A DNA stretch of 64,000 nucleotides, from positions 50 through 64,049 of the IMG/VR virus record IMGVR_UViG_3300037502_002379; one strand, given 5' to 3'. Each line of letters starts with the position of its first letter. Position 1 is the stretch's first letter. The stretch comes from a virus. Lineage: Duplodnaviria; Caudoviricetes. This document shows, piece by piece, positions 2,417 through 16,879 of the stretch. Made by a program: the position numbers and the translations under genes. Below the pieces are notes generated by a model, which did no database searches, was not told the DNA's origin, and worked only from the letters and a program-made list of their open reading frames with translations.

Positions 2417-2425
2417 CCCAATACC

Positions 2426-2599: not shown

Positions 2600-2616
2600 C
2601 TAAACAACATAACAAC

Positions 2617-2817
2617 ATGAAAAACGCAACAAACAGCGCCATGATTCTGCTTGCATGTGCAACATTCGCACTGATAACAACGATTTACGCAAACATTCAC
2701 GACCAGCACAAAGCAAAGACACAACGCCAACGCTATTTAGATTGCGTAGAAAGCACGAACGGCACAGACGCGGAATGTGATTCATGTTTCTTTATTATTC
2801 ACCATGTAAAGCCGTAA
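2617..2817 (+). CDS. small membrane-anchored hypothetical protein
   Basis: N-terminal hydrophobic helix and C-terminal Cys motif. Confidence 0.55.
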   Translation: MKNATNSAMILLACATFALITTIYANIHDQHKAKTQRQRYLDCVESTNGTDAECDSCFFIIHHVKP

Positions 2818-2819
2818 AT

Positions 2820-3161: not shown

Positions 3162-3174
3162 ACAATAAAACAAA

Positions 3175-3447
3175 ATGGAAGCAAAAACAAATTGGTACAC
3201 AAAAACCGAAAGCAATCAGCCGATAATAGCGGATGAGGAAACAGGCGACACTATTGCCGTAATTTACAATCAAAAAGACGGAAGCGAAAAGCAGATAGCA
3301 AACCTAATTGCAAGCGCGCCCGAACTTCTTGAAGCGCTTACCGATGTGCTAAGGATATTAAACCTTGAACCAACTTACGACAATTTGTACCAAAGGAACA
3401 AAATTGAAGCATTAATTAACAAAGCAAAAGGAAATACATCATGCTAA
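3175..3447 (+). CDS. hypothetical phage protein (ANLIASAPELLEAL family)
   Basis: Carries a motif common in small phage proteins. Confidence 0.65.
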   Translation: MEAKTNWYTKTESNQPIIADEETGDTIAVIYNQKDGSEKQIANLIASAPELLEALTDVLRILNLEPTYDNLYQRNKIEALINKAKGNTSC

Positions 3448-3632
3448 AAGCTACACTATTACTAAAAAGGAGGGCGAAAATTGCCATTCTAGGACGGCAA
3501 GCAGCCGAAGATGGGTATTTTCACAAGGTGATGCAGGCACATCATTTATTGCGCCAAATTGATGAACAATTATTAGGTTTGACTTCACAAAAACCGTTTT
3601 ATGCCGTACACAATAACCGAACCTTGTCTTAA
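3441..3632 (+). CDS. hypothetical protein
   Basis: ORF track; overlaps neighbours in an operon. Confidence 0.45.
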   Translation: MLKATLLLKRRAKIAILGRQAAEDGYFHKVMQAHHLLRQIDEQLLGLTSQKPFYAVHNNRTLS

Positions 3633-3792
3633 CGCTGTAATTCGCGCAGAAGCCAATTATCAAAATGCGGAACACTTTTACCTGTGTGCTTACCGTAAAG
3701 CTATGCAGCATCCAACATTTAATAACCAACACACGCTAATTAAAGCAGGTCAAATATGGTGGCTTGCATCAGCGAACCGAAATTTTAATTAA
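3601..3792 (+). CDS. hypothetical protein
   Basis: ORF track; operon context. Confidence 0.45.
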   Translation: MPYTITEPCLNAVIRAEANYQNAEHFYLCAYRKAMQHPTFNNQHTLIKAGQIWWLASANRNFN

Positions 3793-3804
3793 CAAATCAA
3801 ACCA

Positions 3805-3984
3805 ATGCAAAACAACAACACATTCCTGACCGCAAAACAATACGCTGAAAAGTACAACATTACTAAAAGGGAGGCGATACACCGTTGTACCCGTAACCGA
3901 GTGCATTACTACAAGGTGGGGCGCGAATATCGGATTGAGGATAAAGACCTCGTGAAGATTAAACCCGGACGCAAGACCAAATAG
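3805..3984 (+). CDS. excisionase-like HTH protein (59 aa)
   Basis: Read by hand: MQNNNTFLTAKQYAEKYNITKREAIHRCTRNRVHYYKVGREYRI...KPGRKTK, an HTH_17-type pattern. Confidence 0.6.
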   Translation: MQNNNTFLTAKQYAEKYNITKREAIHRCTRNRVHYYKVGREYRIEDKDLVKIKPGRKTK

Positions 3985-4000
3985 GCAGCAAACCGACAGC

Positions 4001-4028
4001 AAGCCGTTCCAATTGGGGCGGCTTTTTT
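4001..4028 (+). terminator. intrinsic terminator between the convergent early and replication operons
   Basis: AAGCCGTTCC-AATT-GGGGCGGCTT hairpin followed by a T tract. Confidence 0.75.
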
Positions 4029-4042
4029 GTTTGTGGGAAAAC

Positions 4043-5818
4043 CTAAAAAGGCGCTGGTTCTAAATCTGAATTGTTTTTACCGAAAATCTTTTGATAGTAT
4101 TGATACTGATTTTGCTCTAAAGGGTTCTGCCTGTTAAGAAAATACCTGTTTTTAGCCCTGTCAAATGTAAACACACAAGTACCGGGAATACCAACCAATT
4201 TCTGCTTCTTAACCTTTCTGACAATTACCTCAACCGTTGTGTTCATAGGGTCGGTTAAAATGTACGGGCGGTGTAAAACAATTATGTTGTCCATCTTGTT
4301 ACCCCACATAGCACCCCCTGCAATATCGTAAATATCAGGTACATCATAGTTTCCGTCCTTAGTCTTTTGCATCGTTTTAGGGTGAGCCGATATAACGTAA
4401 CGCAAATTATGTTCTACTGCAAACCGCTTTCTTTCGCGCAAAAAAGCCGATAGGAATTTATCATCCCGTTCAGAAGTATCTACCTCTAATTGATTAAACG
4501 GGTCAATAAACACCCCTTGTATGTTTTTGGTTTCAATCAGATGTAGAACGTTTGCATCTATTTCTGAAACCGTATGTTTATCGGGGTATATGTAGAAAAA
4601 ATGTTCTTTGATAAACTTATAGCCGTCCTCGTATTGCTCAAATGTCATTTGGTTGCGGTCATAGTACGGGTCGGTACTTTTCCCTACTAAGGCATGAATA
4701 AGGGTGTCTATAAATTCATCAACGGGATAGTTTTCGGGAGAGAATACTGCCCATTTCCATCCGTCAAAAACCGAACGCATAAGCATGAGTTGTAGCATAA
4801 ACTCTGTTTTGCCTGCGTTTGGTCGGGCTATTATCAAGGTTATTTCACCCTCTTTCCACTTAAAATTTATGTCAAATTCAGCAAAGTGTGTTGTTTCACC
4901 ACGCTTTTTGCCATGAAAAAATTGCTTTTTCATCTCCTCCCACACCCCATCCACTTCAATAATACCATCCGATTTTATCTGTACGGGCGTGTATTCATCA
5001 ACCGAAATAGGGTTGCGCTGCCCGTATTTAATACCGTTCTCTATGGTTTTTATAGCACCCTTTATGTCAGCTATATCCTTGTTGGCAATTTCTGCCTCCA
5101 ATATTCTTTTAGCCTCAAAGTAATCCACATAACCCGATGCAATGTAACCACCCATCAAGCGTGAGGCTTTTAACAAAACATTATGCTTTTCACCGTCAAC
5201 TGAATTGCGTATCATCTGTACGGCTATTTGTATCTTAGCGTAGTTTGTTTTGACTTGCGTATCTAAGTTGCCGCCAACGGGTGTTGTGTCAATCAGTTCC
5301 TCCATATCAGTAAACTCAACAGCATTTTTGTTGATGTATATGTCGGGGTCATAGCTTTCAAAACACACCCTGCTGATGTTAATTGAGGTGGCATCTAATT
5401 CGGGAAAGCGTTTTAACAGCGCCTTGTAATGCTTCCGATGGTTGTCTATTGAAGGGGGGATTTTTACCAATACTTTCAAACCATCTCCCGATGGGCTGAC
5501 AAACACCGAGTAAACGAACTCATTAGAAGCGATTTCAGCCTTTTTTTCGGGCAATTTGGCAATATGGTCAAAATCAAGCACACAAAGCCCGCTATGAGCC
5601 TCTATTGCGCTGTCCTTGCGTTCTGTAAACCTACCTGCAAAGATGATAGACGGCAACATCTTCTTTTTGTCGCGTCTTACAGCCTCGTCAGTTTCATTTC
5701 TGATTTCGTCTATTTGTTGTTTTATCTTGCCGTTTTTTATCCGGTCAAGAATAACATCAACCTGCACATAATACGGCTGCTTTGTTTCTAAAGCGTTTTT
5801 GTAAACTGTTACTATCAT
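4043..5818 (-). CDS. primase-helicase (BT4734/VirE-N-like primase domain plus SF4 DnaB/Twinkle-type helicase)
   Basis: N-terminal LDFDH, SPSGDGLK and SRVCFESYD motifs; Walker A ARPNAGKT; Walker B FIDP; AHP and DIAGGAMW motifs. Confidence 0.85.
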   Translation of the reverse strand: MIVTVYKNALETKQPYYVQVDVILDRIKNGKIKQQIDEIRNETDEAVRRDKKKMLPSIIFAGRFTERKDSAIEAHSGLCVLDFDHIAKLPEKKAEIASNEFVYSVFVSPSGDGLKVLVKIPPSIDNHRKHYKALLKRFPELDATSINISRVCFESYDPDIYINKNAVEFTDMEELIDTTPVGGNLDTQVKTNYAKIQIAVQMIRNSVDGEKHNVLLKASRLMGGYIASGYVDYFEAKRILEAEIANKDIADIKGAIKTIENGIKYGQRNPISVDEYTPVQIKSDGIIEVDGVWEEMKKQFFHGKKRGETTHFAEFDINFKWKEGEITLIIARPNAGKTEFMLQLMLMRSVFDGWKWAVFSPENYPVDEFIDTLIHALVGKSTDPYYDRNQMTFEQYEDGYKFIKEHFFYIYPDKHTVSEIDANVLHLIETKNIQGVFIDPFNQLEVDTSERDDKFLSAFLRERKRFAVEHNLRYVISAHPKTMQKTKDGNYDVPDIYDIAGGAMWGNKMDNIIVLHRPYILTDPMNTTVEVIVRKVKKQKLVGIPGTCVFTFDRAKNRYFLNRQNPLEQNQYQYYQKIFGKNNSDLEPAPF

Positions 5819-6111
5819 TTTGTAAGTTTTTCGTAATTCAAAATATGCAATCCGTCATTATACAAATCATAGTTAGCACCAACTTTGCTTTCGCTCCAAA
5901 TCAATCTATTTGACATGGTGAACTCTCCTATTTCTTCACCTCTTTTTCGGTCAAACCTTTTAAACTCCAACCCAAAATTCAACCCAGTTTTGCGATGTGT
6001 AATAATAAAATCTATCCGATATTTACCGCACTCACTCCATACTTCCTCGCTTATCATAAAATACTTTAATAGCCTATTGACGATTTTGCTTGAAAATTCT
6101 TTTTCTGTCAT
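5815..6111 (-). CDS. short PD-(D/E)xK nuclease-like protein, possibly truncated
   Basis: E...RIDF...LEFK motif in only 98 aa. Confidence 0.45.
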   Translation of the reverse strand: MTEKEFSSKIVNRLLKYFMISEEVWSECGKYRIDFIITHRKTGLNFGLEFKRFDRKRGEEIGEFTMSNRLIWSESKVGANYDLYNDGLHILNYEKLTK

Positions 6112-6929
6112 TAGCCAAACAAATCTGATGTTTTAATAAATGTTTTGTCTTTACTGCGTCTATACTCGTCTGTTAAAACGTGTTCGCCTTTTCTGTTTAG
6201 CCAATTTTGTAGTGTTAAACCTACATTAGTATTTTTCTTAACAGTATCTTTCCAATTCTCCATCTCCAATAAAACTTCCTCTATAAACTCACGTTTGTAT
6301 TTTTTCGATATGCTCTCCATTGTTTTTGAATCCATTTGCACTTCCATCCTTTTTAATCGCTTGCATTTTTTCTCAACTATAAACTGATTTATCCAATGGC
6401 TTCCTATTGCGTCAATTTCTTCTTTGTAATCATTCACCCAATTTTCTATGTTGGCTGAAACTATTTCATAATTATCCTCAATAACCTTTTTAACAGTAAC
6501 ATCGTTAGATGGTATGGCTATTGTTATTTTATCGTTTATATGTTTATTAGTTTCTAAGTTTAATTGTTTATATAAGTTCCCTTGCTGTTCCTTTTCTGTT
6601 CCTTCTTTATTCCCTCTTTGTTCCTTTATTATTCCCTCATTGTTCTCAAATTCAAGAATAAAAATCTTTGGTTTAGTTGTTGTGTTTTTAATGCCTTGAC
6701 TATAAACAATAAACCCCAAATCATTCAACCTTTGTATTGAAGAATAATAAGTATTTTTTGACACCTTAGATGTTTGGCATACAATATCCCAATGACACAC
6801 AAAAGGGTTTAGCCAATTTAACTTATTGCAATAATTTAAAAGGCTCATGTAAACCGAAATATCTATCCCAGATAATTCAGAAGATTCAGCTTTAGCCCAA
6901 AAGCCATTTATTTGTGTAAGGTAGTTCAA
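6111..6929 (-). CDS. replication initiator / replisome organiser (N-terminal wHTH)
   Basis: HTH-like N-terminus, low-complexity linker, position upstream of the helicase, TTG start. Confidence 0.65.
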   Translation of the reverse strand: MNYLTQINGFWAKAESSELSGIDISVYMSLLNYCNKLNWLNPFVCHWDIVCQTSKVSKNTYYSSIQRLNDLGFIVYSQGIKNTTTKPKIFILEFENNEGIIKEQRGNKEGTEKEQQGNLYKQLNLETNKHINDKITIAIPSNDVTVKKVIEDNYEIVSANIENWVNDYKEEIDAIGSHWINQFIVEKKCKRLKRMEVQMDSKTMESISKKYKREFIEEVLLEMENWKDTVKKNTNVGLTLQNWLNRKGEHVLTDEYRRSKDKTFIKTSDLFG

Positions 6930-7027
6930 AGCAAAACAGCGCAGCCCAAAGCATAATGGCTCACCCGTTGCGAAGTAATCGCTTTGGACATTACACTAAG
7001 GACTGCATTGTTTTTAAATGTTTTCAT
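6926..7027 (-). CDS. putative 33-aa leader peptide coupled to the initiator gene
   Basis: MKTFKNNAVLSVMSKAITSQRVSHYALGCAVLL*; its TGA overlaps the TTG start at 6929; promoter TATCTTTG at 7043-7050. Confidence 0.45.
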   Translation of the reverse strand: MKTFKNNAVLSVMSKAITSQRVSHYALGCAVLL

Positions 7028-7090
7028 AACGAGTGAGCAAGGCAAAGATAATGTTTTGTTTGATATTTTAAACATTTTTATGAAAAAAAA

Positions 7091-7231
7091 TTACTTTAAT
7101 ACCAACGTGTAAGTTCCTATCTTAATAGACTTATATTTGCCCCTTTTAATTCCTTGATATACTGCTTGTACAGTAATTCCTTTAAGTTGTGCAAAATCCT
7201 TTACAGGTATGCAATTTGCTTTTACATCCAT
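7091..7231 (-). CDS. small HTH (excisionase/Cro-like) protein, 46 aa
   Basis: Read by hand: MDVKANCIPVKDFAQLKGITVQAVYQGIKRGKYKSIKIGTYTLVLK. Confidence 0.6.
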   Translation of the reverse strand: MDVKANCIPVKDFAQLKGITVQAVYQGIKRGKYKSIKIGTYTLVLK

Positions 7232-7233
7232 TT

Positions 7234-7578
7234 TTATTGTTTGTTTTGTTTAAAAGTTAATCTTGTTGGCTCAATGCCGTTTGAGAATATAGAAAGGTCT
7301 ATTCTGTTTACCAACAACCAAAATTCGCCATTGGTATGTATTAAATTATTGCAAGCCTTCCTGCAATAAATCACGCTACTCGTTTTGAACGGATGCGCGA
7401 ACTCTTGCCCGATTTCTTTCAGCCCTAAGCGAGTATATCGCCAAAGAAAGAACATAATCAGATGCCGCGTTTTAACGAGCGCGTCCGTTCGTTTGGCTGT
7501 GTTCACATCTTTCCATTTAGTACCCATTGCATCGCAACAAGTATTTTTTATCAGTTTGATTTTCTGTTGTTTGGTCAT
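7234..7578 (-). CDS. DnaA C-terminal (domain IV)-like DNA-binding protein
   Basis: KRT..LVKTRHLIMFFL..YTRLGLKEIG..F....SSVIY pattern. Confidence 0.7.
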   Translation of the reverse strand: MTKQQKIKLIKNTCCDAMGTKWKDVNTAKRTDALVKTRHLIMFFLWRYTRLGLKEIGQEFAHPFKTSSVIYCRKACNNLIHTNGEFWLLVNRIDLSIFSNGIEPTRLTFKQNKQ

Positions 7579-7581
7579 GGC

Positions 7582-7989
7582 TTAAAATATTAATTTCAAC
7601 CTCATTTCAATACCGTTAATAGCTTGCGTAACGTCCTCATAAACGCCATATTCAACCTTCATTTTATCCCTTGCGTGTATGACTGTGCTATGGTCTTTGT
7701 GTTTGGCTTTGCCTTGCTTTTGACATCCAGTAAACAGCGAACCAATTGCTTTCAAATCTAATCCGCTATGCTTGCAAAGAATGTACATAGCTATTTGCCT
7801 GCGCTTCACAACTTCGCGTTTTCTTGTTGGGTTGCTTAGTTCCTCCCATGTGCAGCGGTAGTGTTCGCAAATCTGCTCTTGAATTAGCTTTGCCTTTTCG
7901 TGTGGAAAATAGGCTTTCTTAGTTATATGGTTTAACCCTGCGAACACATAAGGGTTAATCATTCTGTTTCTTGTTGTTGTTAGTTCCAT
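7582..7989 (-). CDS. DnaA C-terminal (domain IV)-like DNA-binding protein
   Basis: RKREVVKRRQIAMY...LKAIG..F...KDHSTVIHA matches the DnaA domain IV signature. Confidence 0.8.
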   Translation of the reverse strand: MELTTTRNRMINPYVFAGLNHITKKAYFPHEKAKLIQEQICEHYRCTWEELSNPTRKREVVKRRQIAMYILCKHSGLDLKAIGSLFTGCQKQGKAKHKDHSTVIHARDKMKVEYGVYEDVTQAINGIEMRLKLIF

Positions 7990-8648
7990 TTGATTTTGTC
8001 TTTAAGTATGTTCAAATAACTGCTTGCCTCCGTTGCCTTTTCGAGTATCAGCTTAATGTGTTCTTCATCGCGCTTAACTGGTATAATCTTGATGTGCAAC
8101 TTTTCATCAAATAGGCGGTCATCATAGCTAATAAAGTCGCAATTATCGCGCTCACACAAATACATATTAAGTTGCATTTGGCTGTAATATTCAGGCTTCA
8201 GGTCGCGCAAATCTTCGCCCGTATCGCAAAGCAAGTATTCAAGGTGGTTTTTACTTTCTGGGCATTTAATCTCGCAAATACGGTCAGCAAGTATAATATC
8301 AGGAGTACCGCCAACATTAAAGGCGTCGTCCCAAAAGAACACATAGCCACCAATAGAAGTGTAAATAAAATCTTTGGAGTTTATGTCAAGGTCAAAAGCA
8401 TTGGCATAGGCTAAAACGGCTTGCGGCTCAAGTTCATTGCCGCGCTGCATTTGGGCGTTGTAATAGTCGGGCGCTGGCGGTGCAATCATTTCGGCTAAAA
8501 TTTCTTTAACGTAGGTTTTAGCGCCAACACTTAGCCCCGTTCCGCTTTTAGCCTTAGCTAGTAAGCGGTTAATTTGTGAGGCTGTAAACAATCCGCGCCT
8601 AAATCCTTTCCAATCTTCTTCTGTTTCAAATACTTTGCGGTTAATCAT
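7980..8648 (-). CDS. YqaJ/lambda-exonuclease-family recombination nuclease
   Basis: W...R.G.FTAS, RGNELEP, GTPD, EIKCP and YYSQMQ motifs. Confidence 0.9.
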   Translation of the reverse strand: MINRKVFETEEDWKGFRRGLFTASQINRLLAKAKSGTGLSVGAKTYVKEILAEMIAPPAPDYYNAQMQRGNELEPQAVLAYANAFDLDINSKDFIYTSIGGYVFFWDDAFNVGGTPDIILADRICEIKCPESKNHLEYLLCDTGEDLRDLKPEYYSQMQLNMYLCERDNCDFISYDDRLFDEKLHIKIIPVKRDEEHIKLILEKATEASSYLNILKDKIKWN

Positions 8649-8920
8649 ATATCAATTTTTAAGTTTGAGATGTATTCTTGTTTGTCATTGGCATTTCCAT
8701 ACCCATGTTCACCTCTTTCACTACCGGCATCAAAAGCTTTTTCAATTTCAGGAATTAAAGGAGTTGATTGAGATAGAATTAATTTTAGTTCATTTATTTT
8801 AGCAAAAATTCTTGTATCATCTTGCTCGTCTAGTACTTCTTCTTTTCTCAGTTCTTCTATTCTTTTTTTAATAGCTGTTACATTGATGACAGCACATTCA
8901 TTTGCGCTTGTTTTACTCAT
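8645..8920 (-). CDS. hypothetical protein
   Basis: ORF track; overlapping operon junctions. Confidence 0.55.
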   Translation of the reverse strand: MSKTSANECAVINVTAIKKRIEELRKEEVLDEQDDTRIFAKINELKLILSQSTPLIPEIEKAFDAGSERGEHGYGNANDKQEYISNLKIDI

Positions 8921-9461
8921 TTCCTAGTTTCTCCTTATTACTTTTAGTGAAAGCCTCAAATAGATTTTTGTCAGGCGTAAATTCTACAATATCCTTTCGG
9001 TTAAGGTTAGCGCCAAACAAGTTGCCAAACATGTCCGCAGCGTCTTTTATAGCTACCGTTTTTGCAATCGGAAAAGCCATTGATAACGCTCCGTTGTTTA
9101 TGTTCACAAGGTCAGCAGGTGATGTTCCCTTAGCCGTTTGAAGCTGTGCCGCGCCAATCCCATCGTGGAAGCTCCATTCGCCCGTCAAAGGCGATTTAAA
9201 GTGAACGCGAACTGTAACCCATACCCCGTTAAAGGCTGTACCTTGCCCCGTAATCTCAATACGATACTCTTTGAATATCTTACGTAGCAACAATTCAATT
9301 TTGTCAATAGGCAGGTATTTATAGCCCTTAATGTATGGGTGTTCTTTCACCCATCGTTTCGGAGGTTGCGCGTTTAGCAATGCGTTTAGCGCATCATTTT
9401 TATAGGCTAGTTCAATGTCGCCAGTTAAATCAGCTAGCGTTGGCAGTTTGTTTTGTTCCAT
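8913..9461 (-). CDS. single-strand annealing protein (Rad52/Sak-like)
   Basis: YLPIDKIE and A.T.AIK.AA..FG.LFG..L motifs; lies next to the YqaJ exonuclease. Confidence 0.7.
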   Translation of the reverse strand: MEQNKLPTLADLTGDIELAYKNDALNALLNAQPPKRWVKEHPYIKGYKYLPIDKIELLLRKIFKEYRIEITGQGTAFNGVWVTVRVHFKSPLTGEWSFHDGIGAAQLQTAKGTSPADLVNINNGALSMAFPIAKTVAIKDAADMFGNLFGANLNRKDIVEFTPDKNLFEAFTKSNKEKLGNE

Positions 9462-9470
9462 TTTTATTGA

Positions 9471-9917
9471 TTAAAGATTTTCTAAAAGATTTGCGTTGCG
9501 GAGGATTTCGATTGCGTTTTCAGCGTGGGCTAAAAACTTGAATTTACTAGAGATTTCATCGAATGCGCGATAGTGGACTACGTATTGGTCTGCTTGTTTT
9601 ACAAGCACATAACCCACACCCCTATAATCCACCTCCTCATTGTAATAATCCGCAATGTTTTGCAGTGCGATTAGCGCCTGAATCCGCTTGCATTGGCGCT
9701 CGGTGGAGAGTTGCGAGTGGTACGCATCATCATCTTCTTTGTAATCGGTGCATATAATTTCATTTGCTTCATCTATGCACCATTTAGGCCTAACCTTATT
9801 AAACACCTCCTGCAATGTTGGAAGTGTCGGCTTTGTTTCTGGTTGCGGTTGCGGCTCAACTAATCTGATTTCGTAAGTCTTGCCGCCTAGTTCGATTGTT
9901 TTTGTTTCTGTGTTCAT
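9471..9917 (-). CDS. hypothetical protein
   Basis: ORF track, operon context. Confidence 0.6.
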   Translation of the reverse strand: MNTETKTIELGGKTYEIRLVEPQPQPETKPTLPTLQEVFNKVRPKWCIDEANEIICTDYKEDDDAYHSQLSTERQCKRIQALIALQNIADYYNEEVDYRGVGYVLVKQADQYVVHYRAFDEISSKFKFLAHAENAIEILRNANLLENL

Positions 9918-9918
9918 G

Positions 9919-10158
9919 TTATTGGTTTTGAATTGTGATAGGTTCGTTGTAGTCTGTAAAGAAATTCATATCCCAATTTTCAGAATAACTACCAACACTA
10001 TAATTATCCAAGCTGCCCGACTGAATAACTATTCCAATTTTCTCAGACAAAAAAAATACTATCCTATCTGAAGGATTTCTGCAAGTTGTAATCATCAGTT
10101 TAGGAAAAGGTTTTACTTCTTGCGTTTTTGCTTCGCCAAGCGTTACTTTGATTGCCAT
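9919..10158 (-). CDS. hypothetical protein
   Basis: ORF track, operon context. Confidence 0.6.
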   Translation of the reverse strand: MAIKVTLGEAKTQEVKPFPKLMITTCRNPSDRIVFFLSEKIGIVIQSGSLDNYSVGSYSENWDMNFFTDYNEPITIQNQ

Positions 10159-10319
10159 GTTATTGATTGTTTTGTAATGAATAAATCTGATTAAGTGTCA
10201 GTCTGCTAAGTATCAGCAAATGCCAACAGAATAGCATATTGCGCATATTCGGAAACAGTCCGCATTGTAAGCAGAATATCTTGACTTCGCGAGGTGAAAT
10301 GTTTGGTTTTGGTATCATT

Positions 10320-10802
10320 TTATCCGGTTATGTCTTTAATGAATGATAGGTCAAGCGGAGTAAGTTCGGGCTTTAGTTTTTGCATTTCGGCAGCTTCTTG
10401 TTGATGCCTTTTATCCATTTGTTCTTTTTTATCCAACCATTCAACATAGTCAGGATTGTAAAAAAAGAAGTAATTTGTTTTGCCTTTTAGCTGTTCTAAT
10501 GGTTGTGTTATTTCGGTTTGTGTTTTCCCGTTCTTTTCAAGGAGCAAGCCTCCATCTTTTCTAACCTGCAATAGTTTAACAATACTACCATCTGAATAAG
10601 ATTGTTTATGCAAGCACATAAACGGCTCAAATTCAACATTTGCCTTTATGTGTTCGTCAATAGCTTTGCGGCAATCTTTTAGGCTTTTGCGACCTTTTTT
10701 GCGCCAATTGTCTTCGATTAGAAGTTCAACCGTGAATTTATCAGTATCGGCATTGTACCAAATCTGATGTTCTCTGTAAGTTTCGACTAAGAATTTGTCC
10801 AT
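10320..10802 (-). CDS. hypothetical protein
   Basis: ORF 10320..10826; ATG at 10802 lies downstream of promoter TATATTTG at 10824-10831. Confidence 0.6.
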   Translation of the reverse strand: MDKFLVETYREHQIWYNADTDKFTVELLIEDNWRKKGRKSLKDCRKAIDEHIKANVEFEPFMCLHKQSYSDGSIVKLLQVRKDGGLLLEKNGKTQTEITQPLEQLKGKTNYFFFYNPDYVEWLDKKEQMDKRHQQEAAEMQKLKPELTPLDLSFIKDITG

Positions 10803-10876
10803 TTTTACTGTTTTAATTATGCGCAAATATATGCTTATTGTTTTGACATTTACAAATTATCCACAAAAAAGATTTG

Positions 10877-11305
10877 TTAATTATTTTCAGCGTCTTGTTT
10901 TTCTTGCCAAATAATATCTTTCAAACACTCCTCGCACACTAGAATATCCCCCATGCGCTTGTCAGCGTGATTAATCAGCAAATCTTCCTCAAAATAATTT
11001 CTACAGTCAAAACATTGCTCCGTTTCGATGTCCTCGATTTCGGGATAGCTTCTGTAATCGGGGCTAAACAACCAAAATATCATTAGCCCGTGCTGCGATA
11101 CCCTGCGCTGCGATTCCCGTTCGCGCTTGACAATCTCATCCATCACCGGCTGATAGTGCTTAAAGTGCGCATTAAAATCGGTGTGGTCGCCTTTGTACAA
11201 TGCAGCATCAATCGCTACTATCCAATCAGGGTAGTGCTTAGGCGTTACTTTGTCTTTTGTTTCGTAGTAAGTCGCTACGAAGTGGTCAATTGTTGTTTGG
11301 TTCAT
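10877..11305 (-). CDS. hypothetical protein with C-terminal Zn-finger
   Basis: CFDC...CEEC motif. Confidence 0.6.
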   Translation of the reverse strand: MNQTTIDHFVATYYETKDKVTPKHYPDWIVAIDAALYKGDHTDFNAHFKHYQPVMDEIVKRERESQRRVSQHGLMIFWLFSPDYRSYPEIEDIETEQCFDCRNYFEEDLLINHADKRMGDILVCEECLKDIIWQEKQDAENN

Positions 11306-11700
11306 ATATTCTTATACGGATTGTTTGGTAATGTTGTTGCGTCAATGGCTTCGTTGTCTTCGATTAGACCGAAAAGGTCAAAGCTGCGTGAGAGTAGGTA
11401 GGCAGCACCCATTGCTATTTCTAGCAACTTTAAAGGAAACAAATGACCTTTTATAATTTCATCTATAGTATCTATTCGGACTGAATCCGAATCTTCTATG
11501 CTATTAGGATTTACAAGTTTGTAAAACTCAAGCTTTTCTTCCTCTGTCATATCCGACAACGGGCGAAGGATTGGCTTGTGTGGATTGTCTGACTGTTTCC
11601 AATTTGAAGGAAAGTGTGACGGCTTTAACTCGTAAATCTGATTATTGTAATCCATACACTTGCAGCCTAAGTACAAATGCGCTACGTCTTTGAATTTCAT
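11302..11700 (-). CDS. conserved Bacteroidetes-phage hypothetical protein
   Basis: KPILRPLSDMT and FDLFGLI motifs. Confidence 0.65.
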   Translation of the reverse strand: MKFKDVAHLYLGCKCMDYNNQIYELKPSHFPSNWKQSDNPHKPILRPLSDMTEEEKLEFYKLVNPNSIEDSDSVRIDTIDEIIKGHLFPLKLLEIAMGAAYLLSRSFDLFGLIEDNEAIDATTLPNNPYKNI

Positions 11701-11801
11701 AATAAAAATATTGCTAGTGAAAAAATAATAATCCCTCCGAATAACAGCACGCAGCCCGAATAGAACAGCGCGGTGTCAAGTTGTTTGTAGTTGATGTTCA
11801 T
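11697..11801 (-). CDS. 34-aa membrane peptide
   Basis: MNINYKQLDTALFYSGCVLLFGGIIIFSLAIFLL*; ATGA overlap with the next gene. Confidence 0.45.
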   Translation of the reverse strand: MNINYKQLDTALFYSGCVLLFGGIIIFSLAIFLL

Positions 11802-11805
11802 GTTA

Positions 11806-12627
11806 TTAAATAATTATTTTCTTAATAGGGCTTGCAGTGCCTAAAATATCTACATCTGCTATCTTTATATACCCCGCAGTTGTATTTATATTTTTATGAC
11901 CTGCAATTTTTTGTACCGTTCTTAAATCAACGCCATCTATTACCATTTGAGTTAAACAACTGTGTCGTAAAGAGTGTGATGATATTTTCTTTTTAAAACC
12001 TAATTTATTTGCAATAGACTTAACAAGTGTCTGTATGCTTTTTTCTGAATACTTACCACCTTTAGCGCCCTCAAATAAATATGTTTTTGTTTGGTAAATT
12101 TTCCAATATTCCCTTAATAATTTTACAATGGCAGAATCAAGCATCACTATCCTGTCAACTTTTCCTTTCCCATTTTTTACTTGTATTTTATTATTAGAAG
12201 TATCTATGTCTCTAATTTTTAAATTTACAACCTCTCCTACTCTAAGGGCACATGAATACATTATACAAATAATAGCTTTATGCTTAATATTTTTTGTGTA
12301 ATTAACCATTCGCTGAAACTCATCAACTGACAATACATCTGGTTGCTTTTGCTCAATTTTAGGTCGAGGCAATATTTTATTATTAAAATTCTTATCTAAA
12401 CATAACCTGTAATAACACTTAAAGGCATTTATTACAGCCATTCTTGTTGATGCAGAATAATGAGTTTTACTTAGCAAGTACATACGCAAATCATTTTCGG
12501 ATATATCTTTAGCATCTTTATTAAAATGTTTTGAAACATTAGATACTATTGATAAATAACTCCTTGAAGTTTTGCCACTAAAGTTTTTTAGAAACATCAA
12601 TTCTTTAAAATCTTGCAATTTATCCAT
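11806..12627 (-). CDS. tyrosine recombinase, putative integron-like cassette integrase
   Basis: SAM-like N-terminal domain; catalytic R (LRVGE), K (GKGK), HxxR (HSLRH), H (GH) and Y (TTAGY) all present; lies 53 bp from the first cassette boundary. Confidence 0.9.
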   Translation of the reverse strand: MDKLQDFKELMFLKNFSGKTSRSYLSIVSNVSKHFNKDAKDISENDLRMYLLSKTHYSASTRMAVINAFKCYYRLCLDKNFNNKILPRPKIEQKQPDVLSVDEFQRMVNYTKNIKHKAIICIMYSCALRVGEVVNLKIRDIDTSNNKIQVKNGKGKVDRIVMLDSAIVKLLREYWKIYQTKTYLFEGAKGGKYSEKSIQTLVKSIANKLGFKKKISSHSLRHSCLTQMVIDGVDLRTVQKIAGHKNINTTAGYIKIADVDILGTASPIKKIII

Positions 12628-12639
12628 AATGCAAAGATG

Positions 12640-12688
12640 CTAATTATTTTTGATATACGCAATATTGGACTATATAATAGTTACCTGC
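12640..12688 (+). other. attI-like primary recombination site (TATATAATAG|TTACCTGC)
   Basis: First G|TT junction next to the integrase start; no attC hairpin precedes it. Confidence 0.65.
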
Positions 12689-12693
12689 AAGCA

Positions 12694-13656
12694 CTACGGA
12701 CGTTCTTCGATTAAGCATTTCGGTTCAGTTTTAAATAATTTTTTTTCCTCCACTTTTAAAAAAGAAAAGATATGTTCAACTATTCCAACAGTCCATCCAT
12801 CACCAATCAAATTGCCCGCCTGTGCCTTGTTTAAATTTCTTGTATATCCTTCGGGTATATTATGAAGCCTTTCAAGTTCCTTTTGTGTGCAATACCTCAC
12901 TCCCTTACTTTCGTCCATTGTTTCGTCTGTATAAATGATTGTAGTCATTCCAGTAGTTGCGTAACGGTGCAACATATATCTTTGGTTTGCATCTCGGCCA
13001 CAACTTGTATTTAAACAAGTATGTTTCTTTTTATCAGAATATCCGTATTCCAAAACATCATTTAACAGTATCTTTTTATCTCTCGGTTGTGGTATTGCAC
13101 ACTTTCTGTTTCCAAATAAATCAAAAGTTTCAGGCCCGATATTAGTCCAAAACAATCTATCTCTCAATGCACCACTCACTCTACTTCCACAAAGTCTTAC
13201 AGGTTCAGTTCCTAATAATTCAGATATTGTATTGTAGCCTAAATCATCCATTATCACATTTTCAAGCAAATAGTAATCGGGTTTAGTTTCTTCGAGTAAT
13301 CTTATGTATTCATAAAATAACATTGATTTCATTCCTTTTAATCCATCCCTTACGCTATTTGCCCTACTAAAATCTTGGCACGGGCTACCTCCAATCAATA
13401 AATGTATTTTTGGCAAATCTTGGCCTTTCACTTTTGTAACATCTCCAATCTGAATAGTATCAGGAAAATTATCCATTGTGCATTGTATGGCGTGTTTCTT
13501 TATTTCGGCTGCATAATATCGTGTAGGTTTCAATCCTACATTATTAAGGGCAATTTGTCCGCAACTCATACCATCAAATAATGATAATACGTTAAATTCT
13601 TCGGCAAAGCCGTTTTTGCCATCCCTCAAAAAATTATTTAAAACTGTTTCTTTCAT
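12694..13656 (-). CDS. C5-cytosine DNA methyltransferase (cassette 1 cargo)
   Basis: LSLFDG (motif I), GGSPCQ (motif IV), LENV (motif VI), R.RLFW and IGDGW. Confidence 0.9.
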   Translation of the reverse strand: MKETVLNNFLRDGKNGFAEEFNVLSLFDGMSCGQIALNNVGLKPTRYYAAEIKKHAIQCTMDNFPDTIQIGDVTKVKGQDLPKIHLLIGGSPCQDFSRANSVRDGLKGMKSMLFYEYIRLLEETKPDYYLLENVIMDDLGYNTISELLGTEPVRLCGSRVSGALRDRLFWTNIGPETFDLFGNRKCAIPQPRDKKILLNDVLEYGYSDKKKHTCLNTSCGRDANQRYMLHRYATTGMTTIIYTDETMDESKGVRYCTQKELERLHNIPEGYTRNLNKAQAGNLIGDGWTVGIVEHIFSFLKVEEKKLFKTEPKCLIEERP

Positions 13657-13689
13657 CTAATTAGCTTTATCGTTTAATAAACCGTGCCA

Positions 13690-13785
13690 GCAGGTAACAA
13701 GGTATTTGCAAAATTGCCCATCAACATTGTGCTTAATTTGAAGTATCTGCAAGGGCAACTTCGCAAATACCCAAACGTTATGCCC
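13690..13785 (+). repeat. attC-like site of cassette 1
   Basis: GCAGGTAAC ... GGTATTTGCAAAATTGCCC / GGGCAACTTCGCAAATACC stem ... GTTATGCCC. Confidence 0.85.
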
Positions 13786-13789
13786 AATG

Positions 13790-14185
13790 CTAAGACAGCG
13801 TTCTGCCAAAACATGTGACTTTTTGACCATCTTCAAAATGACTTGCTTTTTCTAAAAGTTCATTCATAATGTCATTGATATTAAAATTATGTGAGAAACC
13901 CATCTCAATTTCATAGTTACCGTTTCGGTCAATAACACAACCCATTGCTTTTTCAACGCTTTCGGTTAATAGTTCTCGATAAAAATCTTTATCTATATTC
14001 AAATCCTTTACAATAATGTGTGTTGTGAATTTTCTACTTTGTATTCCACACATTGAAACTTCTGATGGGTTTCCATTTCCTAATTGAAACTGACCAAACA
14101 TAAGCAAGTCATTATCATCACACCAATGGTAATCCTTTTCGTTTACATAACCTTTCGGTCTTGAATCTGCTACAAATACTTTCAT
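13790..14185 (-). CDS. hypothetical protein (cassette 2 cargo)
   Basis: Single ORF filling cassette 13777-14345. Confidence 0.75.
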   Translation of the reverse strand: MKVFVADSRPKGYVNEKDYHWCDDNDLLMFGQFQLGNGNPSEVSMCGIQSRKFTTHIIVKDLNIDKDFYRELLTESVEKAMGCVIDRNGNYEIEMGFSHNFNINDIMNELLEKASHFEDGQKVTCFGRTLS

Positions 14186-14218
14186 TTTTCTGTTTTAAAA
14201 TTGTTCAAAAAAAGCACT

Positions 14219-14354
14219 GGGCATAACACGTGTTTTGCGTTATGGTGGCTGACGTGCTGAAATCAACCGCAGTAATTCTATTTGGCTTTAGTGCTATGCC
14301 GACAGTTAGTGCTACTAATCCGCCACAAACGCAAAGCACCTGAACGTTAGGCAC
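14219..14354 (+). repeat. attC-like site of cassette 2
   Basis: GGGCATAAC ... GTGTTTTGCGTT / AACGCAAAGCAC stem ... GTTAGGCAC. Confidence 0.85.
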
Positions 14355-14670
14355 AATATGCTTTCCTGTATCGCTCAATTATGGTATCGTTTTCTGCAAA
14401 TGGTAATGCTATCGGGCATGGGTGGTCAAAGTCAAAAAAACTTTCCTCTCCACATTTACTACACTTGTAATGAACAACATTCCTTTCTTCAACATACACA
14501 TCTCTGATAAATGATAAGTTTTTTTGCCCTTCATCATCTGTATCGCCACACATTTCATTTTTACATTTGCAGTAAACGAATGTTCTTTGGTTCTTCTTCC
14601 TAATCCGCATACTGCTCCTAACATGGTATTTATGCCATGCCGTATTTAGTGCTTTAATCAAGTTTGTCAT
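14347..14670 (-). CDS. Cys-rich (Zn-ribbon) hypothetical protein (cassette 3 cargo)
   Basis: CKC...C and CSKC motifs; the TAA stop lies inside the GTTA junction; likely ATG at 14670. Confidence 0.65.
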   Translation of the reverse strand: MTNLIKALNTAWHKYHVRSSMRIRKKNQRTFVYCKCKNEMCGDTDDEGQKNLSFIRDVYVEERNVVHYKCSKCGEESFFDFDHPCPIALPFAENDTIIERYRKAYCA

Positions 14671-14738
14671 TCTATTTAGGTTTAAATTGTTAACCAACTT
14701 TTGTCTTTCAAATCGGCACGGACATAAATACTCGTCCC

Positions 14739-14953
14739 GTTATAAGCAAGTGGCTGTGGTTAAAGTTCAACATTCCGAACTCCTCCTGTGGTTATCGGAG
14801 GCAGTCTTTGAACTTTACCACTCCACAGCCACCAGACTTATAACATGGGCTAAAACGCAATAGGCACGGAGTACCTTTCAGCATTTGTGATAGCATTGAA
14901 CCACTTGTCCCGTTTAGTTCTGTATGCACACCTACTGCGTTTAGCCCAATTCC
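14739..14953. other. ORF-less hairpin cassette (cassette 4)
   Basis: GTTATAAGCAAGTGGCTGTGG pairs with CCACAGCCACCAGACTTATAAC; inner AAAGTTCAA/TTGAACTTT and TCCGA/TCGGA pairs. Confidence 0.75.
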
Positions 14954-14962
14954 GTTATGCTC
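14837..14962 (+). repeat. attC-like site of cassette 4
   Basis: CTTATAAC ... GGGCTAAAACGCAATAGG / CCTACTGCGTTTAGCCC ... GTTATGCTC. Confidence 0.85.
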
Positions 14963-15140
14963 CATTGCTACGTGTCTGCTTCGATTTGAAATTTGTGGAA
15001 GTTTTTTGTTCTTTTTTCTCCCCACGCACAAGAAAAATCAAATGGTCTTGAATAAAGTTTTTAAGGTCTTTATCTGCGTCAATAGCCATCTTCTTTAAGT
15101 CTTTGACTATTTCTTCGGGTATGTCAATTAGCTTTTTCAT
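14955..15140 (-). CDS. ribbon-helix-helix-like regulator (cassette 5)
   Basis: MKKLIDIPEEIVKDLKKMAI...LKNFIQDHL has the beta-alpha-alpha pattern. Confidence 0.65.
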   Translation of the reverse strand: MKKLIDIPEEIVKDLKKMAIDADKDLKNFIQDHLIFLVRGEKKEQKTSTNFKSKQTRSNGA

Positions 15141-15143
15141 AGA

Positions 15144-15248
15144 TTATTCAATACCCATACCATCGGATTTTTTGTAAATTATAATTCCAAAAATTACCCA
15201 AACTACTATTACAAATATAAGGGCTTGTCCTATTGTTATATCGCACAT
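15144..15248 (-). CDS. 34-aa single-TM peptide (cassette 5)
   Basis: Read by hand: MCDITIGQALIFVIVVWVIFGIIIYKKSDGMGIE*. Confidence 0.5.
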   Translation of the reverse strand: MCDITIGQALIFVIVVWVIFGIIIYKKSDGMGIE

Positions 15249-15484
15249 AATTTCCTTTTTGCTTCAAATAAATCAAACATTTGTTCACCAGTTAGCGATA
15301 ATGTAATTCTACCACCATCAGTGTAAGTGCCTGTAATTTCATCTTCTTCCATTGCATCATAAACTTTAGAAAGTATCATTGCAATAGTTTCTAATTCATC
15401 CGCAGTTAATTTTTGACTGCGTTTTTTTGGCTGAGCGTCTAATGTGCTGTTGCCAATATTTCTTTCGTTAATTCTATATCCCAT
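15236..15484 (-). CDS. hypothetical protein (cassette 5)
   Basis: ORF 15236..15538; ATG at 15484 lies downstream of the internal promoter TATATTTG at 15508-15515. Confidence 0.6.
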   Translation of the reverse strand: MGYRINERNIGNSTLDAQPKKRSQKLTADELETIAMILSKVYDAMEEDEITGTYTDGGRITLSLTGEQMFDLFEAKRKLCAI

Positions 15485-15626
15485 TTTATGTGGTTTTAAA
15501 TTATATGCAAATATATGCCGTATATATGACATACGCAAGAAAAAAGTAAAATATTTTTTGCCTACCCATAAAAAAAGAACAAAAACCTTGCTCCTATTGA
15601 AGTTTACTGCTAAAAATCCGCAACGA

Positions 15627-15726
15627 GAGCATAACAGCGGTTTTGCGTCAGGCGGGGTGCGGTGCTAACTTTGAACATTCGTGCTAATAAACCCGCCCGA
15701 ACGCAAAGCCGCAAAACGTTATGTGC
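15627..15726 (+). repeat. attC-like site of cassette 5
   Basis: GAGCATAAC ... GCGGTTTTGCGT.AGGCGGG / CCCGCCC..ACGCAAAGCCGC ... GTTATGTGC. Confidence 0.85.
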
Positions 15727-15745
15727 AATTTTCTTTTTCATTTTT

Positions 15746-16693
15746 TTAGCCAACGCTCAAATGATTTAATGATTTTTTGAATGGGTTATACTCATAATCT
15801 TCCCAACTGCACGAATTGAAGATTATCCTATTGTTTACATATCTTGTGTATGCTTTTTGATACCTATCATCTTTATTGTATGGCATTACAAAAGGCTTAC
15901 ATCCCAATTTCCTTAAAAATTCAACTCTGTAATAATCTTCTTCGGGAGAAGTATCAAACCCAATTAAAACAAAGAATTGCATATGTTCGCAAGGTATTCC
16001 CCATTTATTACAGCGTTCAATACCTCTAATTATTACCTTTTCATCTTTGAATTGGTCCCACGCAAATGTCAAGTATCGTTTGTTGAATTTTGAATTGTAA
16101 TACTTCACTTTTGCTAATGCTTCTGCTTGTCTATCTGAAATAATGCGAATATTCAAACCTTGAACAAAGCAAACTTTCAAATCAAGTTCTGCAATTCTAT
16201 TCAAATTAGCTTCCCAATTTGTGCCACCAAAAAAATCATTATCCAAAAGCATCAAGTTTTTACCGCCTGATGGGTTAGTGATAAGTTCGTCAATGGTATT
16301 GTAATTGTATGGTCTGCCTTCTTTTTTTGGCACACAACAAAAATCACATTTAAAACGGCATCCTTTCATTGAAAATCCATAATGAAAAGGAGTATTTGGA
16401 TAAATCTCCCAATCCATTGGAGCATTTTCAATTTCAGCAGGTAGTTTGTTATAAAAATCAATTCCAGTTCCACCAATCACCATATTTTCGGGTATTTGTG
16501 GCATTTCGCTAAAATTAAAAATCTTACTTGCATAAATCTTATCGTATTGACTTGCAAACAATATTCCTTCATACCATTCGACTGTATCGCCAATAGATTT
16601 ATGGTAAGCCGATATTTTCATAAGTGCAATATTTGGAAATTGTACTCCTTGATAATCCGTTCCATCAACTTGATATATTGCTATTCGTGCCAT
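15746..16693 (-). CDS. radical SAM protein (cassette 6 cargo)
   Basis: CxxxCxxC motif GCRFKCDFC; PNIALMKIS, GGTG and LLDNDF motifs. Confidence 0.85.
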   Translation of the reverse strand: MARIAIYQVDGTDYQGVQFPNIALMKISAYHKSIGDTVEWYEGILFASQYDKIYASKIFNFSEMPQIPENMVIGGTGIDFYNKLPAEIENAPMDWEIYPNTPFHYGFSMKGCRFKCDFCCVPKKEGRPYNYNTIDELITNPSGGKNLMLLDNDFFGGTNWEANLNRIAELDLKVCFVQGLNIRIISDRQAEALAKVKYYNSKFNKRYLTFAWDQFKDEKVIIRGIERCNKWGIPCEHMQFFVLIGFDTSPEEDYYRVEFLRKLGCKPFVMPYNKDDRYQKAYTRYVNNRIIFNSCSWEDYEYNPFKKSLNHLSVG

Positions 16694-16746
16694 AAATGAT
16701 TTAATGATTTAATTGCCCACGCACAAAAAATGAAAAAGAAAACAGA

Positions 16747-16879
16747 CACATAACAGCACATTGCCAAAAGTGGCGATGCGGTGCTAAAATCAAGTGTAGT
16801 GCTTCTAATTATCATTTGTGCTATATTCAAAATTTGTACTTCTAATTCGCCACCATCGGCAATCTGCAACCCGTTATAT
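16747..16879 (+). repeat. attC-like site of cassette 6 (distal end of the array)
   Basis: CACATAAC ... ATTGCC....GTGGCGA / TCGCCAC....GGCAAT ... GTTATAT; the G|TTA overlaps the stop of ORF 16874..17080. Confidence 0.8.

Follow-up and report, generated by a model that had tools for sequence, protein, structure and literature searches.

Inverted arms and a boundary motif frame exchangeable cargo in a phage-borne, integron-like cassette array

We describe an array of gene cassettes in a 64,000-nucleotide stretch of a viral contig (Caudoviricetes; IMG/VR record IMGVR_UViG_3300037502_002379), below called the window, to which all positions refer. This array shows integron behavior without an integron integrase, and it appears to be a phage-borne, integron-like cassette system run by a Xer-like recombinase rather than by a canonical integron integrase. 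Four cassettes, i.e., cassettes 1, 5, and 6 of the array and a solo cassette located between structural genes, carry terminal inverted arms, and a C-rich motif is present in direct orientation on both sides of their cargo. Based on predicted folds and on covariation of the arms, we lean towards a reading in which the arms pair in single-stranded DNA, loop out the cargo, and favor excision or insertion of a single cassette, with the motif marking the frame/cargo edge of exchange. A first reading of the sequence alone (the original prediction) had described these cassettes as long hairpins whose loop holds the cargo, flanked by a C-rich motif in direct orientation; our analysis supports this description, the hairpins extending from R′ to R″.

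Anatomy and covariation of the inverted arms

The two arms are 100% complementary over 19 nucleotides (nt) in cassette 1 (12726-12744 and 13628-13646), over 18 nt in cassette 6 (15729-15746 and 16725-16742), and over 16 nt in the solo cassette (53500-53515 and 54183-54198), with cassette 5 containing arms that are exact over 15 nt (15003-15017 and 15571-15585), or over 17 nt if a one-base register slip is allowed (15001-15017 and 15571-15587). All of these arms are A/T-rich and homopolymer-rich. When the pairing of the R boxes is included, the inverted ends span from approximately 30 nt in cassette 6 to approximately 66 nt in cassettes 1, 5, and the solo cassette, so that the four cassettes originally noted to have inverted ends of 30-80 nt do have them, with exact arms of 15-19 nt. 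The arm pairs noted at the time are also real, although the second string given for cassette 1 was mistyped, the sequence being AAAAAATTATTTAAAACTG.

As a control for chance, we used 26 unique attC-bounded cassettes from the window and from related loci, leaving out the first 12 nt, which form the R-box extension. The longest inverted repeat between cognate ends was 19, 17, 16, and 15 nt in four of these 26 cassettes, whereas none of 586 non-cognate pairs of left and right ends exceeded 12 nt. Chance matches in A/T-rich, low-complexity DNA would fit the homopolymer-rich nature of the arms, and also the frequency of a loose form of the motif, GWGSGWNGG on the coding strand, which is close to expectation in the window (6 matches vs. 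5.29 expected). However, all six loose matches and all four matches to a stricter form lie in cassettes and on one strand, and the motif is enriched in independent loci; together with the gap between cognate and non-cognate ends, this leads us to reject chance as an explanation.

The position of the arms relative to the R boxes differs between cassettes. In cassette 6, the 18-bp arm continues the R duplex after a 3x4-nt internal loop, and this layout, with the arm directly after the R duplex, is also present in a cassette of the related locus L015 and around gp54 of the Polaribacter phage P12002L. In cassettes 1, 5, and the solo cassette, the R duplex and the arm are set apart by approximately 35-50 nt per side. 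These “bubbles” are made up of conserved left and right modules, which are common to cassettes in the loci L002, L007, L029, L067, L071, and L078. Inspection by eye of both modules (12694-12725 and 13647-13690, and those of L071, L002, L029, and L067) showed that they contain one short element in direct orientation, approximately TCTCCGAATAGAG / TCTCCGATTGAG; it is because both modules hold this element in the same orientation that the bubble does not pair. The element might be a protein-binding site.

When the four cassettes were circularized in silico, the predicted folds of the circular junctions placed the arms in the basal stem of an extended attC of 200-240 nt. The arms paired at 16-19 of 16-19 positions in all four cassettes and on both strands (19 of 19 in cassette 1), with the minus strand more stable than the plus strand (−38.6 to −45.6 vs. 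−31.7 to −39.8 kcal/mol), and shuffling one arm cost the fold about 3-10 kcal/mol. As modeled, the arms would be the distal part of an extended attC hairpin, and not a separate element, with this hairpin split in two by the G|TT crossover; the halves of the hairpin would be found at both ends of the cargo because integration at G|TT splits it.

Further arms were found in related loci, which we fetched using an alignment of the recombinase (a single-protein query gave none) and using a pattern of the right-end motif. The motif pattern returned 28 loci, 14 of which were judged from their flanks to be cassette ends, and a matching left arm was present in 9 of these 14. Altogether, we tabulated 19 arm-bearing cassettes from the window and these loci, with exact arms of 14-23 nt. 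The arm sequences form families, and perfect complementarity is kept within each cassette. For example, cassette 1 and L067_2, which both encode a C5 methyltransferase (31% protein identity over 131 aligned residues), differ at 3 of 19 arm positions, and the solo cassette and L002a, which both encode an N6 methyltransferase (25% protein identity), differ at 9 of 18 arm positions; all of these differences are compensated, and both members of each comparison have fully complementary arms. The cassettes L078a and L078c, which belong to one array, have identical arms. That arm complementarity has been maintained through long divergence suggests selection on pairing or, alternatively, some process of copying.

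The boundary motif and the edge between frame and cargo

The C-rich motif is located on the cargo side of the arms, at 12747-12753 and 13619-13627 in cassette 1, 15021-15029 and 15561-15569 in cassette 5, 15750-15758 and 16716-16724 in cassette 6, and 53519-53527 and 54174-54182 in the solo cassette, with a further copy at 54269-54277. All nine of these positions had been given correctly in the original prediction, but the first of them, CCTCCAC at 12747, is a weak match of 7 nt only. The commonest form at right ends is CCACCGCAC, and the left copies are weaker or degenerate. On the coding strand, the strict form GWGCGTKGG occurs four times in the 64 kb vs. 1.12 expected, always on the minus strand; three of these matches are directly beside an arm, and the fourth is in the attC loop at 54269. 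In a test set that was not chosen by motif, consisting of 16-nt junction windows from nine arm-bearing cassettes (L002a, L002b, L007_1-4, L029, and L019_1-2), CCNWCSCWC was present with at most one mismatch at 7 of the 18 independent junctions vs. 0.76% of background windows, and with at most two mismatches at 13 of 18 vs. 6.7%. The predicted enrichment at arm/cargo junctions is therefore borne out, with a binomial tail of approximately 5e-11 that is overstated by the location of several cassettes on one contig.

The copy at 54269 does sit in an attC loop, as had been noted, but it is isolated, since the motif is exact in only 1 of the 40 distinct attC cores that we found across the window and related loci, and is present with at most one mismatch in three cores on the top strand vs. 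three on the bottom strand; loop motifs are not general. A second core of this type is found at the loose end of a contig (X2) from another metagenome. Because the apical attC loop is the opposite end of the dumbbell, the loop copy does not occupy the same topological position as the motifs beside the cargo. The arrangement also differs from the terminal inverted repeats and target-site duplication of a transposon, in that the motif lies on the cargo side of the arms and its copies, though similar across cassettes, are non-identical within a cassette. Direct repeats flanking the cargo are not general across the cassettes, with cassette 6 (17 nt) and L029 (13 nt) as the only outliers and non-cognate pairs reaching 13 nt at most. 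The 17-nt repeat of cassette 6 is exact (AAATGATTTAATGATTT, at 15759-15775 and 16694-16710) and lies just inside the motif copies. A scan of genomes with the motif pattern gave at least 120 matches, none of those listed being beside an attC-like core, which we read as chance matches and not as absence of the system from bacteria.

In the related contigs and in P12002L, the elements of the frame follow the same order, i.e., R box, optional conserved modules, arm, and C-rich motif, and one frame surrounds unrelated cargo, including C5 methyltransferases, N6/N4 methyltransferases, radical SAM proteins, small open reading frames (ORFs), and a two-gene unit. Comparison of cassettes by BLASTN showed similarity confined to their ends; L071 and L078, for example, match at 91% across 117 nt on the left and at 89% across 160 nt on the right. 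Identity drops from approximately 90-100% in the frame to 25-32% at the protein level in the cargo, and does so within a few codons of the motif. The methyltransferases of L071 and L078a, which are 32% identical overall, have identical last 21 residues, with the change from approximately 30% to 100% occurring at ...RIKKAWEEKRKEKDLTQKTLF; here, the codons for A-W-E belong to the motif, and those for the subsequent Lys/Glu run to the arm.

Relatives outside cassettes end at the same edge. Non-cassette methyltransferases of unrelated phages align to L078a only as far as residues 242-257 of 266 (among the 25 best alignments), similarity to the enzyme of the Klebsiella phage Roth93 fades at the motif (RI..A.E), and the radical SAM protein of cassette 6 matches a phage family over residues 13-304 of its 315, its last 11 codons being part of the frame. 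Homology of the cargo to non-cassette relatives thus stops at the motif/arm edge, as the original prediction requires, and was not found to continue through the arms. Also as predicted, ORF termini run into the arms: the ORF of the solo cassette starts with MSEGK at the arm/motif edge, and that of cassette 6 ends with ...LSVG* inside the arm. In 8 of the 19 tabulated cassettes, the ORF runs 44-63 nt past the inner edge of the left arm, with most of these eight stopping at a conserved TAG approximately 14 nt from the crossover. Where the cargo is a methyltransferase, the downstream motif shares bases with the enzyme's final native codons. These comparisons support a reusable frame with exchangeable cargo.

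Assemblies from other metagenomes contain the same parts in other combinations. Approximately one-fifth of a 5-kb stretch is near-identical in 19 further runs from wastewater, lake, and other aquatic samples, and we compared contigs from four of these runs (including X2, X4, and X13). Cassette 6 is approximately 97% identical in these contigs, with the match starting at 15718 (X4 and X13) and ending at 16876 (X2 and X13), and with unlike sequence beyond. In contigs resembling cassette 1 (X2, X4, and X13), the match ends at 13699, just past R″, and is followed by a different core; other units precede the core 16751-16876 in X4, where the ORF-less hairpin 14739-14845 also has different sequence on both sides. 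The breakpoints observed in this way are 15718, 16876, 13699, 16750/1, 14739, and 14845, and those at R″ (13699 and 16750/1) are non-canonical for integrons. Changes inside the frame were also present: one X2 contig follows the left arm of cassette 6 to 15746, continues with CCCACCGCAC, and then carries different sequence; X13 contigs follow the left module of cassette 5 to 15007 and then contain a different arm and a CCACCACAC motif; and in X2, the interior of cassette 5 (15141-15519) is swapped for 540 other bases, which replaces only the upstream one of two small ORFs. Both boxes thus act as points at which R′-to-R″ units and attC cores reassort, and the cargo changes while its frame is kept.

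How cargo comes to lie within such a frame can be explained in several ways. The original prediction held that cargo is loaded in a second recombination step, in which the loop motif of an ORF-less hairpin cassette recombines with a motif-bearing circle of cargo and leaves one motif copy on each side. The shared frame and the motif at its edge, both part of this proposal, are real, and direct motif copies are found at both arm/cargo edges in independent cassettes, with the copies in L029 having 13 identical bases in common. Unrelated cargo in one frame, the sharp drop in conservation beside the motif, the X2 contig that departs from cassette 6 directly after the left arm and CCCACCGCAC, the existence of ORF-less hairpin cassettes, and the recurrence of an attC core with a loop motif (54269 and the loose end of X2) are all in its favor. 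The second step itself was not shown, however, and the motif is absent from all three ORF-less units (14739-14845 in the window, 5655-5772 in L081, and 9525-9631 in L005). Although left arms or modules followed by different sequence were found in other metagenomes, the predicted empty hairpin with a single motif was not; a search of IMG/VR for an empty frame of family A with a loop of 5-35 nt gave no match. In addition, no candidate for a second recombinase was found among the proteins scanned, neighboring genes included, left motif copies are degenerate (CCTCCC, CCCACCTTT), flanking duplications are not a general feature, attC loops show no enrichment of the motif, and the downstream motif of methyltransferase cassettes encodes residues that still align with native enzymes. 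We therefore regard this route as doubtful, and the variant in which an ORF-less hairpin frame, i.e., an extended attC with paired arms, captures genes at the 9-12-nt motif by directed strand transfer or recombination as slightly more doubtful still. Cargo may alternatively be exchanged by homologous recombination in the conserved frame, and the phage has a YqaJ-like exonuclease (7980-8648 in the window), which suggests a homologous recombination system of its own.

The uniformity of the frame could also mean that it has no dedicated function, and is the remnant of an ancestral methyltransferase cassette that has been kept uniform by homologous recombination or gene conversion, with arms and motif riding along. 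This would account for the prevalence of methyltransferases among frame-bearing cassettes, for the frame-encoded C-terminal tail that starts inside the native methyltransferase end (RI..A.E aligns with the non-cassette enzyme), and for the same arms in L078a and L078c of one array, and would fit the exonuclease of the phage. It leaves unexplained why arms that differ between families are perfectly complementary within each cassette, and why arms and motif also surround cargo other than methyltransferases (cassettes 5 and 6, L007_1-4, and L029), and we consider it improbable.

A role in expression is somewhat less improbable, but still unlikely. Under this explanation, the reversed cassettes bring their own promoter or leader and 3′ end, and the arms pair in read-through transcripts, for example as processing or stabilizing stems, so that their complementarity would be kept for the sake of RNA rather than DNA recombination. 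Because cassette ORFs run antisense to the usual integron direction, a promoter on the attI side cannot serve them; in addition, the ORF of cassette 1 and that of L067_2 contain both arms, and in many cassettes the upstream motif is followed, on the coding strand, by a conserved A/T-rich stretch (TTAATTTGAAAAATTAAAA) that ends 5-10 nt before the ATG and that we take to resemble the Bacteroidota −7 box. Against this, TTAATTTGAAAAATTAAAA has no match with three or fewer mismatches in the window's own cassettes, the motif is not a fixed promoter element because the start codon varies from +32 to about −40 nt relative to the arm/motif, and the exact arm cores contain Watson-Crick pairs and no G-T pairs, which follows from how the search was built. 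Nor does an RNA role predict arms that are direct continuations of the R duplex, as seen in cassette 6, L015, and P12002L gp54. In a scan of sigma-70 promoters and terminators, promoters scored no better than shuffles.

Recombinase, crossover, and cassette inventory

The presumed cassette integrase is a tyrosine recombinase of 273 amino acids (aa) encoded at 11806-12627 on the minus strand (Pfam Phage_integrase, 1.5e-39). Its best NCBIfam match is the archaeal-type XerA (NF040815), at 188 bits and thus under the cut-off of 220, and XerA is also the best match by solved structure (PDB 5hxy and 4a8e). The XerC and XerD models score 151 bits, with cut-offs of 335 and 330, so that the match to Xer is below equivalog level, and the integron-integrase model TIGR02249 scores 142 bits in two stretches, with a cut-off of 265. 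Residues 7-174 and 194-270 align with the VchIntIA structure (2a3v), leaving 19 residues (175-193) opposite the 62 chain residues 181-242 of 2a3v, the region of the IntI-specific insertion. Since the integron-integrase score is below cut-off and only 19 residues face this region, we classify the enzyme from its sequence as Xer-like and without the IntI-specific insertion; its C-terminal tail nevertheless aligns with the IntI tail. There are 212 homologues in metagenomes with E ≤ 1e-20, mostly of 273-275 aa.

The recombinase gene adjoins an attI-like junction (12628-12683, plus strand) with the crossover G|TTA at 12680 and no hairpin to the left. Homology of this region with L015, L017, L018, and L019 ends at 12683-12690 (at 12683 in L017, L018, and L019), i.e., at the crossover. 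In L015, the recombinase is 92% identical and both flanks of the array (attI and distal) are in common, with none of the six cassettes shared. An attI site beside the integrase gene and a cassette content that varies among relatives are thus found here as in integrons, and nine related loci (L002, L004, L007, L015, L017, L022, L026, L028, and L033) likewise have arrays upstream of their recombinase gene. By eye, the attI region also contains a direct copy of an R′-like element (ATACGCAA) approximately 25 nt left of the crossover, which is kept in L002, L019, and L029.

Seven attC-like cores are present on the plus strand of the window, six within 13695-16876 and one at 54245-54314, and the search returned one stray match on the minus strand. 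The cores have the layout ...TAAC, 1-2 nt, stem, variable loop, stem, 5-6 nt, GTTA..., with asymmetric spacers (1-2 nt after R″ and 5-6 nt before R′), and, as in integrons, they are imperfect R″-L″...L′-R′ palindromes with ...AAC/GTT... ends and a variable center. The minus strand gives the better predicted fold in five of six cores. A strict RYYYAAC/GTTRRRY filter and a filter on the first and last base pair missed attC sites, and a sliding fold scan was uninformative. Pairing beyond the core is also general: in essentially all cassettes, the bases preceding R″ pair with 12-13 of the 14 bases at the start of the same cassette. By eye, the consensus of this R duplex is GTTAnnnGCAAK pairing with CYAGCnnnTAAC, and it holds a conserved two-base mismatch, which on the minus strand is T-T plus G-T.

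The crossover is placed at the right-hand box (G|TTA) because there is no hairpin to the left of 12680 and the sole core of the solo cassette is on its right. The pairing of the R-box extension and the contigs that break exactly at 15718 and 16876 agree with a G|TT crossover. An alternative definition of the cassettes, with a left-box crossover and the attC downstream of the ORF, was ruled out by the hairpin-free attI end and the right-hand core of the solo cassette. All cassette ORFs are on the minus strand, and are not co-oriented with the attC top strand as in integrons; because of this, each attC core is upstream of its own ORF, the reverse of the canonical order.

On this definition, cassette 1 (12681-13777, plus strand) encodes the C5 methyltransferase (12694-13656, minus strand), with its attC core at 13695-13780, and its frame consists of R′ extension, left module, arm, and motif on the left, and motif, arm, and right module on the right. 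Cassette 2 (13778-14346) carries a DUF7715 ORF (13790-14185, minus strand) and has the R-box extension pairing only, in which 13777-13791 pairs with 14213-14227 (15 nt, 93%); it has no long arms, its longest inner repeat being 12 nt. Cassette 3 (14347-14739) contains a 71-aa ORF (14409-14624, minus strand) and a core at 14619-14742. Cassette 4 (14740-14954) is ORF-less and consists of a 107-nt hairpin (14739-14845) followed by a core at 14841-14957. Cassette 5 (14955-15718) has a left and a right module, a core at 15632-15721, and two small ORFs, within 14955-15140 and 15236-15538; the 61-aa ORF continues across motif, arm, and left module, with its stop codon in the R′ box. Cassette 6 (15719-16873) encodes the radical SAM protein (15746-16693, minus strand) and ends in a core at 16751-16876. 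The variable loops of the attC sites 14224-14349, 15632-15721, and 16751-16876 contain direct repeats of GTGCTAA-like units, and shorter versions of attC loops occur in other metagenomes (joints 15656>15692, 16767>16832, and 16775>16849).

The solo cassette (53452-54311) encodes an N6/N4 methyltransferase (53528-54184, minus strand) and has its core at 54245-54314. An uninterrupted target site for this cassette was not found, the search giving one weak locus only. Also between structural genes is a small R′-to-R″ hairpin unit (56032-56181) with a 38-codon ORF (by eye) and no long inner arms; by eye, the direct repeat AGTGTCGTG is present on both sides of it, and there is no clear attC core on its right.

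The window constitutes nearly all of a 64,049-base viral record with an estimated completeness of approximately 55%. It encodes phage proteins including a portal protein, a large terminase, and a primase/helicase, and nearly all of its long ORFs are on the minus strand. Two of these are very large, 24559-31647 (2362 aa) and 34337-39172 (1611 aa), and the 2362-aa ORF had no family match in NCBIfam or PHROGs. An Rfam search of the window and a megablast of the cassette array against a phage collection returned no match. The sequence suggests a host in the Flavobacteriia, because the nearest recombinases of cultured phages, approximately 31-35% identical, come from Polaribacter and Cellulophaga phages. 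Ten genomes of the Polaribacter phage Freya (MT732463-MT732472), with a recombinase that is 34% identical, vary in length from 43,978 to 48,920 bases, and the position of their integrase gene shifts from 71 to 4168, which hints at variable upstream content.

A working model and its relation to known systems

In the model that we favor, cassettes would insert at the G|TTA crossover beside the recombinase gene, and occasionally at secondary GTTA sites. The extended hairpin would comprise, from its center outward, the attC core, the 12-15-bp R″/R′ duplex with the cleavage site, in some families the conserved non-pairing modules of approximately 35-50 nt, and then the perfect, A/T-rich stem of 14-23 bp. 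The arms would zip up in single-stranded DNA, most likely the minus (bottom) strand, loop out the cargo, and hold together the halves of the R boxes and hence the two flanking attC cores; this pairing would favor correct folding, and excision or insertion of exactly one cassette by the Xer-like recombinase. The motif, which is C-rich on one strand and G-rich on the other, coding strand, would mark the edge between conserved frame and variable cargo, and cargo may be exchanged at the motif or within a few codons of it, either by homologous recombination in the frame or in a motif-directed step.

Several observations weigh against this model. Arms are present in a subset of cassettes only, with 22 of the 26 in the chance control having no inverted repeat beyond the 12 nt found by chance; with only 4 of 26 cassettes in this unbiased set carrying them, the arms are therefore not needed for the system to work. 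In cassettes of the module type, approximately 35-50 unpaired nt separate the arms from the R duplex, and the motif is missing from two arm-bearing cassettes of L019. Arms and motifs are often part of the ORF and encode N- and C-terminal peptides, which leaves room for a role at the RNA or protein level. The evidence for the structure consists throughout of prediction and covariation, and the joins seen in metagenomes come from short assembled contigs, which are prone to breaks and mis-joins at repeats.

The same frame is present in a cultured phage. In P12002L, it surrounds the methyltransferase gp38 (arms 31364-31379 and 32158-32173; motif CCCTCGCTC), with an arm pair resembling family A, and another arm pair flanks gp54. 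The gp38 unit was missed by our detector because the boxes GTTGT/ACAAC replace GTTA/TAAC. The two arm-bearing methyltransferase cassettes of this genome, L215 in our set, lie at 31326-32173 and 38098-38870, and the genome has no integrase annotation. Qi et al. (2023; PMC9892861) describe phage-borne attC sites with methyltransferase cargo, P12002L included, and report that phage attC sites recombine with IntI1; in the parts of that paper available to us, the term “Xer” does not occur and there is no mention of a Xer-like recombinase, outer arms, or a boundary motif. Within the published text that we could consult, we found no description of arms outside the R boxes or of a boundary motif, the formation of cassettes being treated as largely unknown (PMC5371416) or in general terms only (PMC8352920).

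Like integron cassettes (class 1 and the Vibrio VCR), the phage cassettes have R″-L″...L′-R′ repeats, a G|TT crossover, and first bases that pair with their own R″; attI adjoins the recombinase gene, arrays differ among close relatives, and insertion occurs at secondary GTT sites. Unlike in integrons, the recombinase lacks the IntI insertion, ORFs are antisense with attC upstream, and the R duplex is 12-15 bp long, whereas the canonical integron R box is 7 bp. A subset of the cassettes also has modules, distal arms of 14-23 bp, and the boundary motif, and units reassort at R″ as well; it is because modules, arms, and motif extend the hairpin that conserved sequence is found on both sides of the cargo. 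The recombinase resembles Xer/dif systems in its best match, XerA, by sequence and by solved structure, but it differs from them in its sub-cut-off score, in the location of its gene beside a variable phage cassette array, and in its IntI-like C-terminal tail. In T4-type phages, regulatory cassettes of promoters and stem-loops flank diverse small ORFs and allow modular exchange, but these have no attC-type site, tyrosine recombinase, or split long-range stem. HUH sites, i.e., rolling-circle Rep origins and IS200/IS605 ends, combine a hairpin with an adjacent motif, and in the phage cassettes, similarly, a conserved 9-mer is located on one strand 0-3 nt past a stem; unlike at HUH sites, the halves of the phage stem lie 0.3-3 kb apart, and no HUH protein was found among the proteins scanned.

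The conserved two-sided frame, its edge motif, and the covarying arms give a concrete handle on how integron-like cassettes are built, and P12002L is a cultured system that carries the same frame. Motif-directed capture in a hairpin frame, if true, would be the first pathway observed in any integron-like system by which cassettes are built, run in this case by a Xer-like enzyme that lacks the integron-integrase domain. Our findings also indicate that attC-type cassette arrays may be run by a Xer-like recombinase without the IntI domain, and that accessory genes, including those for methyltransferases, appear to be exchanged as cassettes among virulent phages in many samples from freshwater and wastewater.

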